Positions 37,058 to 42,696 of a stretch of 44,485 nt of DNA are shown here, piece after piece; positions within the stretch are counted from its first letter, which is position 1, and each line of letters starts with the position of its first letter. The position numbers and the translations under genes were made by a program. This DNA is from a virus. Location of the stretch: the IMG/VR virus record IMGVR_UViG_3300045988_082204; one strand, given 5' to 3'. The notes under the pieces were generated by a model. The model made no database searches. It was not told the origin of the DNA and saw only the letters and a program-made list of their open reading frames with translations.

Positions 37058-38194
37058 TCACAAAGCATCGGTTATTTTGCGCAAATCGGAATAATTTACG
37101 TCCTGATAATACCTTAACATATCGTCACTGGTGTGCCCGATCAATTCAAGCTTGTCTTTATCCGCGCCCTTTACACGCTTCATAAGGGTAGCAAATGTGT
37201 GACGGCAACTGTGCGGCGTGTATGTATAAAAGGTTTTTCCGTCGCGTTCTTGGGTGGGATTATCTATGCCGCAGGCTTCAAGCACGTTATAAAATAAAGC
37301 CCTGTAGCGTTCTACGGTAAAGGCTTTGCCGTCCTTGTCGACGAACACCGCGCCGGACGCTTTACCGGGCGGTAACAGTGCGTCAATGTACGGCTGTATT
37401 TTCGGCGATATCGTAACGATGCGATCTATACCGGCTTCGGTTTTTATGCCGTTTATAAATGCACGTTCAGCGCGGATATACTGTGACGCATCCAGCGCGA
37501 CAAACTCGGTAGGGCGATAGCCTAAGTAACACTGGCAAATGACGTAGGACGCGCCGAACACGTCGTTAACGTGCGCTTTCAGCTTTGGCAGCGCATCATC
37601 AGGCAGGCCGGGCCTGCTGCTGTGTTTGCCGTCAACGGCTAAATACTGACCGTAGTTAAGCTCGGCATAATGGCGCGGTATGGCATATTTGTAGATAAGG
37701 CCGCATAGTGCGCGCATGTTTTCTTTAGTGCGCCGTCCGTGTGGGCATTCGTCGATACATTCCTGCAAATCTTCTATTTCGATATCGCGCAGGTTTAAAT
37801 GATAAACAGCTTCAAAGTATTTATACGCTGATTTATAGCAGTTTATTGTATTTTTACCGGTACGGTGCGTAGGCAGCCACGCTTCATACATCTGCGTAAA
37901 TGATGCGTTTTTAGCCTTTGAAGCTGGCGCTCGTTTAAGGATAGGTATATATTCTATAGCTTCTTTTTTCGTCTTGAAACCGGCCTTAGAACGGGTCTTG
38001 CGATGCACTTTGCCGTTTTCGTCGATTACATATCCTTCGACGATAACCACAGTCCAGCCACTGCCGCGCTTGTAGACGCTGCCTGTACCATTACCGCGAG
38101 ATTTCGGCTTGCGGCCTGCTGCCACACGTGCGCCGCACATATTGCAGAATTTTGAACCGTCCGGTATATCGGCTTTGCATTTTTTGCATTTCAT
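37058..38194 (-). CDS. int: Tyrosine integrase with an N-terminal zinc ribbon
   Basis: Start at MKCKKCKADIPDGSKFCNMCG. C-terminal HSCRHTFATL...LIGHTS...LRYY catalytic pattern. Adjacent to attP. Confidence 0.9.
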   Translation of the reverse strand: MKCKKCKADIPDGSKFCNMCGARVAAGRKPKSRGNGTGSVYKRGSGWTVVIVEGYVIDENGKVHRKTRSKAGFKTKKEAIEYIPILKRAPASKAKNASFTQMYEAWLPTHRTGKNTINCYKSAYKYFEAVYHLNLRDIEIEDLQECIDECPHGRRTKENMRALCGLIYKYAIPRHYAELNYGQYLAVDGKHSSRPGLPDDALPKLKAHVNDVFGASYVICQCYLGYRPTEFVALDASQYIRAERAFINGIKTEAGIDRIVTISPKIQPYIDALLPPGKASGAVFVDKDGKAFTVERYRALFYNVLEACGIDNPTQERDGKTFYTYTPHSCRHTFATLMKRVKGADKDKLELIGHTSDDMLRYYQDVNYSDLRKITDAL

Positions 38195-38258
38195 TATTCG
38201 CTTTGACCCCCTTAGATATTCGCTGAAAATAATTTTATAGCGAATAATGCCCACAGAG

Positions 38259-38819
38259 TCAGTCCTGTGGGCTTTTTGTTGTTTTGGCATCGTGGATTAC
38301 GGTTTTCACCGCAAAGACGATCAGGGCGATTGCAGCAAGCACCACGATAGCCAGGAACACGGCCAGCACCGTTAAGCCGCCGGATTTGAACAAGCCGATG
38401 TTCTTTAGCTGCATATCAAATATGATATATCCCACGCCCACGCACAGCAGAATTGCGCATACACCGACAAGGCAGAATACAAGCGGCCTGTAAACGGCGT
38501 TCATGCGCTTGTGGTGCTCAACGTCATTTTTTGCGCAGGCGTTTTCAATCTCAAGCTCACGGATATAGTCGTTAGTATCGGTGTCGCGCAAACCCAACGT
38601 TTCATCGAGCGACAGGCCGAGAACAACGCATATGGCGGCGACACTGTGGAACGAAACTTGCTTTGCAGTACCGGCGGTTATATTGCATACGGTGTTGTAC
38701 GCGATGCCGGACTTGTCGGCGATTTCCTGATTAGTTAGCCCCGATGCGTCCTTACCTTTGCGGATTTTGGCGAAAACCACAGTCAAATCGGGAATTTCAT
38801 AAGTCGATTGCACGGTCAA
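38259..38819 (-). CDS. Membrane-anchored XRE-family HTH protein
   Basis: N-terminal LTNQEIADKSGIAYNTVCNITAGT HTH. Two C-terminal TM segments (LVFCLVGVCAILLCVGVGYII; LTVLAVFLAIVVLAAIALIVFAV). TTG start after GGAGATGA. Confidence 0.7.
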   Translation of the reverse strand: MTVQSTYEIPDLTVVFAKIRKGKDASGLTNQEIADKSGIAYNTVCNITAGTAKQVSFHSVAAICVVLGLSLDETLGLRDTDTNDYIRELEIENACAKNDVEHHKRMNAVYRPLVFCLVGVCAILLCVGVGYIIFDMQLKNIGLFKSGGLTVLAVFLAIVVLAAIALIVFAVKTVIHDAKTTKSPQD

Positions 38820-38836
38820 TTATCATCTCCAAAGCA

Positions 38837-38874
38837 TTCTTGTTTTCGCCGAAATGTTCTTGTTTTTGGCGAAA
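38837..38874. repeat. Two 18-nt direct repeats upstream of the HTH-TM gene (operator-like)
   Basis: ttcttgttttcgccgaaa (38837-38854) and ttcttgtttttggcgaaa (38857-38874). Further TTTCGGCGA-like copies lie at 38891-38920. Confidence 0.45.
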
Positions 38875-38981
38875 CTATTGAAAAAGCGTCATTTCGGCGA
38901 TTTCGTTATAGATTTCGGAGGTACATTTTGTTACGCTATAACCGTAGCAGATAAAAGGTTTACAAGGGATATCTGTTACAA

Positions 38982-39015
38982 GCCCTGCCTACCGGGTTGC
39001 AGCGGCGGGCAGGGC
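38982..39015 (-). terminator. Terminator-like GC hairpin after the DUF4041 gene
   Basis: 8-bp stem gccctgcc/ggcagggc. The U tail on the minus strand is weak. Confidence 0.4.
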
Positions 39016-39025
39016 GAGTTGAAAA

Positions 39026-40732
39026 CTATGTATTTGCGTTCGCCTGTGCGCGTAATAGCAACGATTCACGGTACTGTTCGGCTGGGGGCGTATCGATAAA
39101 TTCGACGGACTTATCAAAGTTTTCTTTAACTACTTTTTTAATCTCATCAAGAGTGACGTTAAAGAATTCTCTGCGCTGATTCACAAAATTCAGCTTGCGG
39201 TCTGCAAACGCATTATGCAGTGCGGCTTCAAGCTTCGGCGCATCATCGGAAAATATCATTGCATGAATATCAAATTTAAAGGGTACGGACGCATCGCCCA
39301 GCTCGTCAACACGGTCTGAAGGGTCAAGGCGGCGGGTCATGCCGATTTTATACACGTTTTCGCCGAACGCGCCGATATTAGATATAATGTAAACATATCC
39401 GGCGCGCTGGTTTGCTTCACGGTAATCAACTTCCTTGAACGCAGTGTCGATCTTATCAAGCTGCTGTTCGATGTGAGCTTTCTTTTCTTCTATGGCGGCG
39501 GCTTCGTCACCGGTCGCCTGTAAAAGCTGCGCGTTGATTTTTTCCAGCGCATTTTGATAATGCGTCTGTTCCTTTTCAAGCTTGCGGCGTTCTTCTTCCA
39601 ACTCGCGGGCAAGCCGCTGTGCTTCTTTCAGTTCGGCGCGGGCTTCTCGCTGCTCTTCTTTTTCCTGTTGCTTTTTCTGCTGCCACTCAAACGCAAGGTG
39701 AAGTTCATCAAGCTTCATTCCGTAGTAAACGGACGTTATGCTGATACCCATCATAGCACCGAGCTTTGATATGGCCTCACGCGACGCTGTTATGCGCCTT
39801 TCGCTGATTTCGACGTTGTTATATTTGACGTGTTCAACAACGTCGTCACATTCGGCATTGAATGCACGCAAAAGCAGCTTTTGCATGTCGGCGACCATCC
39901 TACCGCCTTTTTTAGTGTCGCCGTCTATAGCCCATGCTGTGCTGCCGCTGACCGCCGTGCCCTCGCGCACCGCGTCCTTTTGACGGGCACGAATTTCAAG
40001 CAGACGCGCCTTGTAATCGTCGGCGCGCATGAAATCATAATGCGGTGTGTACAGTCCAAAGCTTTGAAGCGAAACGACATCTTCAACTTCGGTGATCTGC
40101 TGCTTAACGGCGTTCAATTTTTCTTCACTTTCTTCAATTTGCTTGAGGTATTTATCATATAGGTTTTTTACCTTTTCAAGATCCATACCTTCTGTTTCGA
40201 CGATCCGGCATTTGACTTCATTAAGCTTTTCTTCGTTTTCTGCGATTTCTTTAAGGTACTTATCATTTTGGGCTTTCAGTTTCTGAACGTCCATCTTGAT
40301 ATCAACCAATTCGCTTTGCTCGGGGGTCAGTTGTTCGCGCAGCCTTGCATTTTCGCGACGCAGGCCGTCAAGATCGTCGCTGTGTACCTTACTGTTAACG
40401 CGATACACTGAATTATTTGTTGATAATCCATTGATTTTATCCATAGTGCACTGTTCACCGGCTTCATATCCCTGCGCCGATGATATATTGTTGCTTATCG
40501 GCGACGTGACCGGCTCAGGCGTCGGCTGCACGGGTTTAGCTGGTGGCGCTTCCTTTTTGTTCGGCTTCAACAGTATTGCAGCGATACCTAAGCAAAATAT
40601 AGCACCAAGTATCGTAACCGCTGTGTCATTATCAGGCATTTTCGGAGCAAAAATCAACCACACACCGGCAATAGCGAAGACGACACCATAAATAACCTTG
40701 ATGACGTGCAATATCTTTTTTAATATGTCCAT
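39026..40732 (-). CDS. TM + coiled-coil + DUF4041-like + T5orf172 (MUG113/GIY-YIG-like) protein
   Basis: Two N-terminal hydrophobic segments. Duplicated coiled-coil unit (DKYLKEIAENEEKLNEV / DKYLKQIEESEEKLNAV). SFGLYTPHYDF...LLLRAFNAECD central region. C-terminal GYVYIISN...VYKIGMTRRLDPSDRVDELG. SD AGGGGGA lies 6 nt upstream. Confidence 0.8.
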   Translation of the reverse strand: MDILKKILHVIKVIYGVVFAIAGVWLIFAPKMPDNDTAVTILGAIFCLGIAAILLKPNKKEAPPAKPVQPTPEPVTSPISNNISSAQGYEAGEQCTMDKINGLSTNNSVYRVNSKVHSDDLDGLRRENARLREQLTPEQSELVDIKMDVQKLKAQNDKYLKEIAENEEKLNEVKCRIVETEGMDLEKVKNLYDKYLKQIEESEEKLNAVKQQITEVEDVVSLQSFGLYTPHYDFMRADDYKARLLEIRARQKDAVREGTAVSGSTAWAIDGDTKKGGRMVADMQKLLLRAFNAECDDVVEHVKYNNVEISERRITASREAISKLGAMMGISITSVYYGMKLDELHLAFEWQQKKQQEKEEQREARAELKEAQRLARELEEERRKLEKEQTHYQNALEKINAQLLQATGDEAAAIEEKKAHIEQQLDKIDTAFKEVDYREANQRAGYVYIISNIGAFGENVYKIGMTRRLDPSDRVDELGDASVPFKFDIHAMIFSDDAPKLEAALHNAFADRKLNFVNQRREFFNVTLDEIKKVVKENFDKSVEFIDTPPAEQYRESLLLRAQANANT

Positions 40733-40905
40733 ATTATTCCCCCTAAATTAGATTTACTACACAATATTACCACTCTCAACGGCGAAATTCCACGATTTTC
40801 AACAATTTCGGCTGATTGCTTAATAACAGCAATCTCGACTTGTGTACATTGCCCATATAATCCACCACGCAAATTGTACAAAAAGGATGTTTTACGTTTG
40901 TGCAT
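40720..40905 (-). CDS. Possible small XRE-like HTH protein, translationally coupled to the DUF4041 gene
   Basis: CTQVEIAVIKQSAEIVENRGISP resembles an HTH_3 core. The 3' end contains the SD and start of the downstream gene (13-nt overlap). It has no convincing SD of its own. Confidence 0.35.
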   Translation of the reverse strand: MHKRKTSFLYNLRGGLYGQCTQVEIAVIKQSAEIVENRGISPLRVVILCSKSNLGGIIWTY

Positions 40906-40936
40906 AACAAGAATGGACGAATATACGCAATTGTGC

Positions 40937-40982
40937 TAATATCTTTACAAGATAATAAACGATAAATAATATCTTAACAAGA
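40937..40982. repeat. Two 16-nt direct repeats, 30 nt apart, in the upstream region of the XRE/DUF4041 pair
   Basis: taatatctttacaaga (40937-40952) and taatatcttaacaaga (40967-40982). Confidence 0.6.
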
Positions 40983-40994
40983 CAATTGACAGTT

Positions 40995-41021
40995 AATAAA
41001 AAGCTCCCCGTTTAGGGGAGC
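40995..41021 (-). terminator. Rho-independent terminator (minus strand) ending the toxN transcription unit
   Basis: 7-bp stem gctcccc/ggggagc, 5-nt loop, followed on the minus strand by TTTTTATT. Confidence 0.65.
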
Positions 41022-41042
41022 GAGGGTTAGTTGCAAGCCGCC

Positions 41043-41229
41043 TATTTATAAGTCCCCGAACGGCAGGGGGCAGTTAATAGCAGGTCGCATATTTATAAGC
41101 CGCCTTACGACAGGCGGCAAAGGTGGCCATCATCTCGGTGAGCATTTTTTATTTTACCCATCTCGCGCCCTACGAGATGATCTTCTCGGTGGGACTTCTT
41201 TATTTATACGGCTCGACTCCCTCCGAGCC
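41043..41229. repeat. Array of 29-nt AT-box + hairpin modules, plus a segment with mutually exclusive pairings
   Basis: Three modules of identical architecture: tatttata(a/c), 6-bp GC stem, 8-nt loop, 6-bp stem. They lie at 41043-41071, 41090-41118 and 41201-41229, and each has a different stem sequence. Between them, 41129-41137 and 41159-41165 both complement 41173-41181. Confidence 0.6.
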
Positions 41230-41243
41230 AGTGCTAACATTGA

Positions 41244-41729
41244 TTATCGGTTCGGGTCAAATTGCTTACAGGCTTTTTCAAGCTTCTTGAAATTGCAGCA
41301 AATCTCCTTGAGAAACTTGTTTTCACTGTTTACGACTTCATAATAAGTCCGAGACGCTTTGTTAAGTATATCGGTTTTGTTTCGATTACAGAAATACGCC
41401 TGTTTCTTCAACAGCATTGCGTAATGGGCGCTTGGTTCGTCATCGATATTAAAGGATATCAAAACATCGTCCCTGACAGGTATCATATTGTTAAAGCCCA
41501 GCAGACCCAATCTGCCTTTGTCCATCTTGAGAATATGTATTCCCGGTTTTATTTTTTCGTGAGCCGGTTTAGGTGATTCCATCGGCACAAAATATTTAAA
41601 TTCGCCGACGTGAAGTACGACTCCAACATAAGGGCGCAAATGGTGCTTGTTGAGCTGTACTCGGCTGTCACGGCTGTGTAAAAAGGCGACGTATTTATCT
41701 TTAACCCTATAGATTTTTAAATTTTCCAT
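41244..41729 (-). CDS. toxN: Type III toxin-antitoxin toxin, ToxN/AbiQ family endoribonuclease
   Basis: KIYRVKDKYVAFL...RPYVGVVLHVGEFKYFVPMESPK...LGLLGFNNMIPV...CNFKKLE aligns by eye with ToxN/AbiQ. A tandem RNA-repeat array and a terminator lie immediately upstream. Confidence 0.85.
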   Translation of the reverse strand: MENLKIYRVKDKYVAFLHSRDSRVQLNKHHLRPYVGVVLHVGEFKYFVPMESPKPAHEKIKPGIHILKMDKGRLGLLGFNNMIPVRDDVLISFNIDDEPSAHYAMLLKKQAYFCNRNKTDILNKASRTYYEVVNSENKFLKEICCNFKKLEKACKQFDPNR

Positions 41730-41758
41730 ATATCTCTCTCGTTTATTTCATTTAAAAG

Positions 41759-41787
41759 AGGCGAGACAGGAAATGCCCATCTCGCCT
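41759..41787 (-). terminator. Hairpin between the repeat array and toxN (attenuating terminator, as in ToxIN loci)
   Basis: 8-bp stem aggcgaga/tctcgcct, 13-nt loop. On the minus strand it is followed by CTTTTAAAT. Confidence 0.55.
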
Positions 41788-41893
41788 TTTTCAGTCCCTA
41801 CTTACGGTAAGGGTTCACCGCTTTTTTCTGTCCTGACTTTCGGCTCAGGTTATCCGCTTTTTTCTGTCCCTACTTAAAGGTAAGGGTTTCCCT
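41786..41893 (-). ncRNA. toxI: ToxI/antiQ-like antitoxin RNA: 3 tandem repeats of 35-37 nt
   Basis: Units at 41786-41820, 41821-41856 and 41857-41893. The minus-strand consensus is ..GG..AACC[short hairpin]AC.GAAAAA(A)G. Unit 2 has a different but still self-complementary stem. Confidence 0.75.
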
Positions 41894-41954
41894 CTTGGGG
41901 CTGACATGGAACGGTTGTTTCAATGTCATGGTAAGCATCGCTGCTTACATCTTT

Positions 41955-41982
41955 ATTATACGCAAAGCTTAGAAAAAATCAA
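41955..41982 (-). promoter_or_regulatory. Sigma-70-type promoter for toxI-toxN
   Basis: On the minus strand: TTGATT, 16 nt, TATAAT (plus-strand aatcaa 41977-41982, attata 41955-41960). Confidence 0.6.
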
Positions 41983-42116
41983 CACGGGAGAGTGAACGTT
42001 AACAACATTTTAGCAAAACTCACAAAGCGAAACGTTAGAATACAGCAGAATAAACGAAAAGTCAACTAAAATTAACGAAATATAGCGAATGAGCAAAAAT
42101 GGAAGGGAGAACAAAG

Positions 42117-42230
42117 ATGACGGCAAAAGAAGAACGGGAAATACTGATTAAGGAGCTAAAACGGCTCATCAACGAAGCAAGCAATTACGAATTGCGGTGC
42201 GCGTACATCCTACTGCTTAATATGAAGTAA
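42117..42230 (+). CDS. Hypothetical 37-aa helical peptide
   Basis: ATG follows GGAAGGGAGAACAAAG. Reads MTAKEEREILIKELKRLINEASNYELRCAYILLLNMK. Convergent with the repressor gene. Confidence 0.4.
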   Translation: MTAKEEREILIKELKRLINEASNYELRCAYILLLNMK

Positions 42231-42240
42231 ACACAGCAAC

Positions 42241-42277
42241 AAAAAAACCGGCCTTTATTGGTCGGTCTCTTTTTTTA
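42241..42277. terminator. Bidirectional terminator between the small ORF and the repressor gene
   Basis: A7, then stem accggcc/ggtcggt, then ctcttttttt. The repressor stop codon lies in the loop. Confidence 0.65.
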
Positions 42278-42647
42278 TGTCTTCGACTTCGGCGGCGAGC
42301 TCAAGCAGCTTGCTTTCAAACAGTGCCCATTCGTCCGGCGTAGTCCGTGCAAGCACCGTTATGAACGCCTGTTGTATCGGTGTTCCGTCGTTGCCTAACA
42401 CCTTACCGATAAACGCGGATATTTCATCAGCGCGGCTTACGGCCTTGAACGGCTCACCAATGCCTGAGCGTAACCAAACTTCATCTACATTAAATTCACG
42501 GCAAATATCTTTTATTGTTCGGTCTCCGGGAACACGTTCACCTTTTTCGATCATCCAAACGTAATTTTGCGAAATATTTATTCTGTTGCCGAAATCGGTC
42601 TGCGTAAGTCCAAGATTGGCACGCAACCATTTAACACGTTCGTTCAT
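42255..42647 (-). CDS. CI-like repressor (XRE HTH plus C-terminal dimerisation-type domain)
   Basis: ATG 42647 follows CAAGGAGGTGAAACC. Reads LRANLGLTQTDFGNRINISQNYVWMIEKGERVP. Confidence 0.8.
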   Translation of the reverse strand: MNERVKWLRANLGLTQTDFGNRINISQNYVWMIEKGERVPGDRTIKDICREFNVDEVWLRSGIGEPFKAVSRADEISAFIGKVLGNDGTPIQQAFITVLARTTPDEWALFESKLLELAAEVEDIKKETDQ

Positions 42648-42667
42648 GGTTTCACCTCCTTGCATAC

Positions 42668-42696
42668 ATAATAACACTTCAATCTAACACTGTCAA
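42668..42696 (-). promoter_or_regulatory. Repressor promoter (minus strand)
   Basis: On the minus strand: TTGACA, 17 nt, TATTAT. TAACAC operator-like half-sites at 42672-42677 and 42685-42690. Confidence 0.65.

Follow-up and report, generated by a model that had tools for sequence, protein, structure and literature searches.

The 44,485-nucleotide (nt) stretch of viral DNA analysed in this study (IMG/VR record IMGVR_UViG_3300045988_082204, hereafter the window) contains, at 39026-40732 on the minus strand, a gene for a protein of 568 amino acids (aa) that very probably encodes a defence nuclease of the SNIPE (PD-λ-1) family, a single-gene anti-phage system carried here as an accessory gene within a temperate phage's lysogeny module. 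The assignment is based on the open reading frame (ORF) itself and on profile matches; the region of interest, 39026-40905, also takes in a 61-aa ORF that overlaps the start of the gene. The lysogeny module occupies 37058-42677 on the minus strand, in the order cI-like repressor, ToxI-like repeats, ToxN/AbiQ gene, hairpin repeats, 16-nt repeats with a promoter-like site, leader, 568-aa ORF, HTH_26-transmembrane (TM) gene and integrase. The ORF proved real, and it lies between the integrase and ToxN/AbiQ genes with all three on the minus strand, so that the prophage lysogeny-module position given in the original prediction, made from the letters alone, holds. Coordinates below are those of the window and refer to the minus strand unless stated otherwise.

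Domain architecture of the 568-aa protein

Each part of the layout first proposed for the protein (two N-terminal hydrophobic segments, a Pro-rich linker, a coiled coil with an internal duplication, DUF4041, a second charged coil and a C-terminal T5orf172/MUG113 GIY-YIG-like module) was borne out by the analysis. The only two hydrophobic helices fall in the first 56 residues. TM helix 1 (residues 10-29, 40646-40705) reaches a 19-residue Kyte-Doolittle mean of 2.37 and TM helix 2 (residues 39-56, 40565-40618) one of 2.51; means in these two segments are 2.0-2.5, compared with a maximum of 0.96 elsewhere in the protein. An AlphaFold2 model of the full-length protein, built on 48 homologues, places helices at residues 2-28 and 37-54, and the hydrophobic segment of TM helix 1 is kept in full-length relatives. 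Both helices have Lys and Arg on their outer flanks, and they are joined by an acidic 9-residue loop, PKMPDNDTA; the positive-inside rule therefore points to a hairpin whose termini are both cytoplasmic.

The hairpin is followed by a linker rich in Pro, Ser and Asn (residues 57-117, 40382-40564; 8 Pro, 7 Ser and 7 Asn in 61 residues), which is modelled as disordered, with a predicted local distance difference test score (pLDDT) below 50 over residues 59-117. The N-terminal coiled-coil stalk (residues 118-223, 40064-40381) is modelled as helices at 118-133, 137-179 and 185-223 and gives weak matches to SMC/Rad50 coiled coils. It contains an internal repeat, DKYLKEIAENEEKLNEVKCRIVETE / DKYLKQIEESEEKLNAVKQQITEVE, with units beginning at residues 157 and 193. 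The 36-aa duplication (residues 182-217, 40082-40189) is present only in the window protein and in P0002; since the 532-aa relatives (P0003-P0009), which are 87-89% identical, lack exactly these 36 residues, the alignments mark the repeat as a lineage-specific duplication.

The DUF4041 core (residues 285-340, 39713-39880) matches Pfam PF13250 over its full length (1-56 of 56, E=4.6e-22, 78.1 bits against a cut-off of 27) and lies in the best-modelled part of the protein, residues ~237-345, with pLDDT 83-92. A long charged α-helical linker (residues 346-443, 39404-39697) follows, modelled as helices at 334-405 and 409-434 and aligning with the 'downstream α-helix' of E. coli SNIPE. The C-terminal nuclease domain of the T5orf172/MUG113 type (GIY-YIG clan; residues 445-537, 39122-39400) matches PF10544 at 5.1e-19 and PF13455 at 3.9e-20, and the DUF4041, T5orf172 and MUG113 matches all score well over the Pfam gathering thresholds. 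This module is modelled as β-β-α-β-α, and its GYVY (445-448), YKIG (461-464), R467/R468 and E502 are invariant across the 48 homologues.

Membership of the SNIPE (PD-λ-1) family

PD-λ-1 was recovered in 2022 by functional selection from E. coli ECOR26 (Vassallo et al., PMC9519451), and was renamed SNIPE when its mechanism was characterised in 2026 (Saxton et al., Nature 2026, PMC13190303). The window protein matches the PADLOC PD-Lambda-1 model PDLC03976 at E=7.9e-155, with residues 124-566 aligned to positions 36-478 of the 491-position profile (~90%), a second PD-Lambda-1 model, PDLC03977, at E=1.3e-148, and PHROG 1847 at 6.4e-152; the precomputed annotation of a public collection names PF13250 'SNIPE'. 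For direct comparison we used the annotated PD-lambda-1 coding sequence of Escherichia phage PhiR26_1 (XSB42081.1, 500 aa). BLASTP gave 42% identity over 414 aa (E=2e-96); by region, the nuclease domains are 73% identical, DUF4041 39% and the linker helices 32%. DUF4041 and T5orf172 at 285-340 and 445-537 correspond to 197-252 and 357-448 in the E. coli protein (supplement of PMC9519451), in the same order and with an offset of +88, and pairwise alignments pair Glu502 (codon 39227-39229) with the catalytic Glu414 of E. coli SNIPE. Family membership, domain order and the catalytic residue can thus be read from the protein itself, as can the hydrophobic anchor and the prophage setting described in the other sections.

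In the E. coli protein a single helix lies in the inner membrane, DUF4041 and the GIY-YIG domain are cytoplasmic, and DUF4041 is the domain that binds DNA and senses the tape measure. Defence is lost with E414A or deletion of DUF4041, and E414A also ends nuclease toxicity. The protein without its TM helix is a toxic nuclease that goes to the nucleoid. SNIPE associates with ManYZ and the tape measure protein; λ DNA is fragmented when injected, and induced prophage DNA is not. Infected cells survive, making SNIPE a direct, non-abortive, single-gene defence, and it targets siphoviruses and not myoviruses or podoviruses (all PMC13190303). The original prediction knew of no characterised system with this architecture and offered abortive infection as a possible function; the first point is superseded by the 2022 discovery and the 2026 mechanism, and the second runs counter to the survival of infected E. 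coli cells. Its general idea of a membrane-tethered nuclease guarding the lysogen from other phages is supported.

The window protein shares with E. coli SNIPE (ECOR26 RCP76574.1; XSB42081.1, prophage PhiR26_1) a single-gene, prophage-borne organisation, the same succession of membrane anchor, coiled coil, DUF4041, long charged helix and C-terminal T5orf172/GIY-YIG domain, and the catalytic Glu (E414 there, E502 here). In contrast to the single N-out helix of the E. coli protein, it has a two-TM hairpin with both ends predicted inside, an additional disordered Pro-rich linker of ~60 residues and a stalk lengthened by the 36-aa duplication, giving 568 aa here against 500 aa there, with the two DUF4041 domains 39% identical. 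The host here is a Gram-positive gut Clostridium, so partners of the ManYZ/λ type cannot be assumed. Within the family, variation is greatest in the N-terminal region: TM helices occur in the first ~70 residues of 66% of homologues, with one TM in 59% and two in 7% (PMC13190303), and the window protein is predicted to belong to the latter minority class. None of its distinguishing traits (two-TM hairpin, Pro-rich tether, 36-aa stalk duplication and Clostridial phage host) goes beyond the range of variation already known in the family.

A second characterised member, PD-Lambda-1 of S. thermophilus (EU01, PMC12322248), protects a Gram-positive host against siphoviruses from its native chromosomal locus; compared by description, it differs from the window gene in being chromosomal rather than prophage-borne. 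Stand-alone T5orf172/MUG113 nucleases, such as phage homing endonucleases and PADLOC PDC-S57, share the C-terminal nuclease domain (PDC-S57 matches residues 442-537 at E=4.7e-19) but are without the membrane anchor, coiled coil and DUF4041.

Several observations weigh against a simple transfer of function from the characterised proteins. Residues 1-123 fall outside the PD-Lambda-1 profile and are unlike E. coli SNIPE, DUF4041 is only 39% identical, and the positions that tune tape-measure binding in E. coli are changed (W257 to His345, E264 to Gln352 and K305 to Gln393). Because DUF4041 and the N terminus diverge and these specificity-tuning residues differ, the membrane partner and the target range cannot be transferred from E. 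coli SNIPE. In S. thermophilus, two homologues 98.5% identical differ completely in activity, one of them being inactive, so that activity is sensitive to small changes (PMC12322248) and family membership is no guarantee of function; the activity of the 568-aa protein is accordingly a prediction from homology. The structure models are of moderate confidence only, with a mean pLDDT of 68.6 for the full-length protein and 62 for the nuclease domain alone, for which the available homologues are 84-100% identical and the alignment too shallow for a confident model. With these models Foldseek gave no significant match in PDB (none at E<=0.001): the nuclease domain model recovered the GIY-YIG structures Slx1, HIGLE, UvrC-N and BH0048 as weak matches (E=0.9-3.4), and the full-length model returned coiled-coil noise only. 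A search of PDB sequences with the full 568-aa protein found nothing at E<=0.01.

Leader and promoter region

The Shine-Dalgarno sequence of the SNIPE gene, AGGGGG (40739-40744), lies 6 nt before its ATG at 40732 and is conserved in five relatives. Both the Shine-Dalgarno sequence and the ATG lie inside the 3' end of the 61-aa ORF (40720-40905), as first described, but the proposal that this ORF encodes an XRE/HTH_3-like helix-turn-helix (HTH) protein did not survive. Searches of Pfam (E<=1), PADLOC, PHROGs and NCBIfam gave no match to it, its ATG lacks a preceding Shine-Dalgarno sequence, and no public gene caller reports it in any related contig. In four close relatives the upstream DNA is 87-94% identical, yet the frame is interrupted by a stop at codon 15 in L086 and is cut short at codon 51 in both L003 and L086, and the 39 variable columns fall 11/14/14 over codon positions 1/2/3, with no codon-position bias. 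We therefore rejected a small protein product, for which there is no family match and no coding-type substitution pattern and whose frame meets stops in relatives. From these comparisons the 61-aa ORF is not a gene but a spurious frame in an untranslated leader of ~210-220 nt (40733-40951). The upstream region is unrelated in the more distant SNIPE loci L090-L092 and L032.

A structured leader RNA or riboswitch was also considered and rejected: the fold gave z=-0.40 relative to shuffled sequence, 0 of 50 pairs covaried among five relatives, and Rfam contained no match. The conservation of the leader fits the close relatedness of these phages.

Upstream of the leader, a consensus scan identified a promoter-like sequence, TTGTTA-17 nt-TATTAT (40952-40980, 9/12 matches), and L003 keeps the hexamers and their spacing (TTGTTC-17-TATTAT); we infer that it functions as the promoter of the SNIPE gene. 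The two 16-nt direct repeats reported earlier, TCTTGTWAAGATATTA, are real and flank this site at 40937-40952 and 40967-40982, 30 nt apart. Two matches were found against 0.02 expected by shuffling, and none of 100 shuffles contained two. The distal copy overlaps the -35 element, and the expected transcription start falls within the proximal copy; both copies are recognisable in L086, L087 and L089, and only the proximal one in L003. The pair is a plausible candidate operator, judged by its position. A role for TCTTGTWAAGATATTA as a general or cI-cro operator was rejected, as the sequence occurs nowhere else in the window even at 2 mismatches and is not found at the cI/cro region.

Carrier phage and related loci

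The carrier is a temperate, contractile-tailed phage of gut Clostridia. The plus strand in the remainder of the window encodes a helicase/primase, large terminase, portal, head morphogenesis protein, major head protein, tail sheath and a 637-aa tape measure protein. At one end of the minus-strand lysogeny module is the cI-like HTH_3 repressor (42255-42677). Just downstream of cI, an antisense 43-aa ORF, MEGRTKMTAKEEREILIKELKRLINEASNYELRCAYILLLNMK, lies on the plus strand at 42099-42230; it is identical in L003 (5637-5768), and public gene callers give a 37-aa gene in several relatives. At the other end is the tyrosine integrase (37058-38290), which has an N-terminal zinc ribbon (Zn_Ribbon_1/DZR) before its Arm-DNA-binding and catalytic domains. 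Its longest ORF is 410 aa and overlaps the upstream gene; public calls start later and give 378 aa.

Between the SNIPE and integrase genes sits a 186-aa gene (38259-38819), which had been passed over in the original prediction. Its product combines an N-terminal Cro/C1-type HTH (HTH_26, E=7e-6) with C-terminal hydrophobic helices and looks like a membrane-anchored XRE-family regulator. The closest relatives, L001, L003 and L089, have a gene of this type (184-186 aa) after SNIPE; it is absent from that position in L090 and L092.

A 45.6-kb metagenome contig encodes an identical 568-aa protein and has its genes arranged in the same order. Homologues in reference genomes come mostly from Lachnospiraceae, Oscillospiraceae and other Clostridia, in both metagenome-assembled genomes and isolates; homologues also occur in 44 deposited phage genomes, and a large protein collection contains over 7,900 matching proteins at E<=1e-10. 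In related prophages SNIPE always adjoins the integrase, in a slot that extends from the cI-like repressor to the integrase. The interval from cI to SNIPE is empty in L003 and L089, holds a CptN homologue (CptIN) in L086, ToxIN in the window, and ToxN with HicAB in L090. This slot is a hotspot for swapping defence and toxin-antitoxin cargo (ToxIN, CptIN, HicAB and SNIPE) in this phage group. Because the upstream 61-aa ORF is non-coding and the flanking genes vary among relatives, SNIPE here is, on comparative grounds, a single gene with no obligatory partner, which leaves no place for the two-gene module of the original prediction. The window carries a representative of an established defence family, in the prophage location where this family usually lies, and no new kind of system.

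ToxIN and antitoxin-like RNA arrays

The locus between cI and SNIPE is a complete type III ToxIN/AbiQ-like system (41244-41982), in agreement with the earlier description of a ToxIN neighbour: a ToxN endoribonuclease gene preceded by tandem repeats and a terminator. The ToxN/AbiQ toxin gene (41244-41729) encodes a protein matching PF13958 at 1.3e-52 and AbiQ at 5.6e-46. The region 41759-41982 ahead of it comprises a promoter-like TTGATT-16-TATAAT (41955-41982), three ToxI-like repeats spaced 36 nt (41783-41896) and a terminator (41759-41787). The Rfam ToxI match, at 30 bits, is under the gathering score of 50, so the antitoxin is of a divergent ToxI/antiQ type.

From toxN to the SNIPE promoter, 240 nt are taken up by a hairpin-repeat stretch of two ~51-nt units followed by two 47-nt units, which ends in an intrinsic terminator (41003-41021). 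The two tandem ~51-nt units lie just downstream of toxN (41133-41234), and the second of them (41133-41183) matches the Rfam 6A RNA (RF02925) with 55.7 bits against a gathering score of 41.2. The two 47-nt tandem repeats (41026-41119) each consist of a GC hairpin followed by UUAUAAAUA. By eye they are ~93% identical to a pair in L086; at L086 1957-2562 that pair lies directly upstream of a CptN homologue (PDB 4RMO, E=2.8e-21) in a CptIN arrangement; the CptIN system of E. rectale has two 45-nt repeats (PMC4627078). A tblastn search found no remnant in the window of cptN or of a 6A-associated toxin gene. The 47-nt pair could therefore be an orphan CptI-like antitoxin array, either a remnant of recombination or a decoy against abortive infection.

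In the IMG/VR contigs L096, L097 and L099, tandem 6A-like units, with a promoter before and a terminator after them, directly precede a 135-142-aa ORF. This ORF carries an N-terminal RPY..G..W.VPL(S/R)S motif common to ToxN and CptN and has no match in Pfam, PADLOC or PDB sequences. Because the layout here is of the type III toxin-antitoxin kind, 6A may be an unrecognised type III antitoxin, and its copies in the window would be orphans since no ORF of the 135-142-aa type occurs there. The name of the 6A motif is absent from the main text of Weinberg et al. 2017. On the antitoxin reading of 6A, two putative orphan antitoxin-like arrays would lie downstream of a complete toxIN in the window. 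The phage contigs L093 and L095 also have an orphan 6A unit, followed after ~300 nt by an abiF RNA (L093 2278-2640; L095 1916-2278; Rfam RF03085, 37.8 bits, gathering score 37). That strand lacks a toxin gene, which suggests that mixed orphan antitoxin-like RNA arrays recur in phages. By analogy with the pseudo-ToxI of ΦTE (PMC3475682), it is conceivable that such arrays serve as decoys against abortive infection.

Proposed mechanism and alternative explanations

For membrane localisation, cytoplasmic orientation, nuclease activity, injection-coupled cleavage and phage specificity, our proposal draws on the E. coli and S. thermophilus work. The SNIPE gene would be transcribed from its own promoter (~40952-40980) via a ~210-nt leader, and the protein would enter the cytoplasmic membrane by its N-terminal two-helix hairpin. 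The Pro-rich linker and coiled-coil stalk would then hold DUF4041 and the GIY-YIG-type nuclease in the cytoplasm just beneath the membrane, where the tethered enzyme would be harmless to the chromosome, as E. coli SNIPE was shown to be. On injection of the genome of a superinfecting phage, DUF4041 would engage the complex of incoming DNA and tape measure, and the nuclease, through its catalytic Glu502, would cut the DNA on entry. The lysogen would survive, so that SNIPE would act by direct defence and not by abortive infection.

One alternative accepts descent from SNIPE and proposes another function here, in this Gram-positive lineage, either a narrow superinfection exclusion aimed at relatives of the carrier phage through a different membrane partner or control by the HTH-TM protein (38259-38819). 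The distinct N-terminal type (hairpin, Pro-rich linker and extended, duplicated stalk), the changed residues at the tape-measure-tuning positions and the presence of the HTH-TM gene after SNIPE in the closest relatives could all be read in this way. The HTH-TM gene, however, is not beside SNIPE in L090 or L092, nor is it part of the E. coli system, and the core domains and catalytic residue are strongly conserved. In addition, since E. coli SNIPE hit siphoviruses and spared myoviruses, and the carrier phage has a tail sheath, exclusion of the carrier's own type is not the default expectation. We consider a changed function quite unlikely.

A selfish homing-type endonuclease of the T5orf172/GIY-YIG class, or a phage nuclease for replication, recombination or degradation of host DNA, would explain why a phage carries the gene, and phage homing endonuclease genes commonly contain T5orf172 domains (PMC10448857). 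Such a role is very unlikely here: the TM, coiled-coil, DUF4041 and nuclease segments match SNIPE end to end rather than stand-alone homing endonucleases, the gene is part of the lysogeny module, on the cI/integrase strand, rather than in or beside a conserved phage gene, and its neighbours are defence and toxin-antitoxin cargo. Least probable of all, to the point that we discount it, is a small XRE regulator translationally coupled to an abortive or toxic membrane sensor-effector, which the overlap of the 61-aa ORF with the start of the SNIPE gene and the conserved leader DNA might suggest, but which conflicts with the missing HTH match and Shine-Dalgarno sequence, the interrupted frame and its non-coding substitutions, the unrelated upstream DNA of distant loci and the finding that SNIPE works alone (PMC13190303).

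Implications

Two further readings build on the identification as SNIPE, and we regard them as rather doubtful. The first is that the hairpin, tether and duplicated stalk define a SNIPE subtype adapted to Gram-positive hosts. If so, a different DNA-entry channel would be the docking site of the N-terminal module, and the length of the stalk would be a ruler setting the depth of the nuclease below the membrane, altered here by the clean 36-aa duplication. The second is that the locus is a mixed island of defence and counter-defence, in which the 6A-type and CptI-type arrays before SNIPE (41000-41243) would act as decoys against abortive-infection toxins.

The finding is of modest value, contributing a well-supported SNIPE homologue carried by a temperate phage whose hosts, gut Clostridia, are a group without experimental data on SNIPE. 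The 568-aa protein and its 532-aa relatives also form a natural pair differing in stalk length, which bears on the role of tether length in injection-coupled cleavage.

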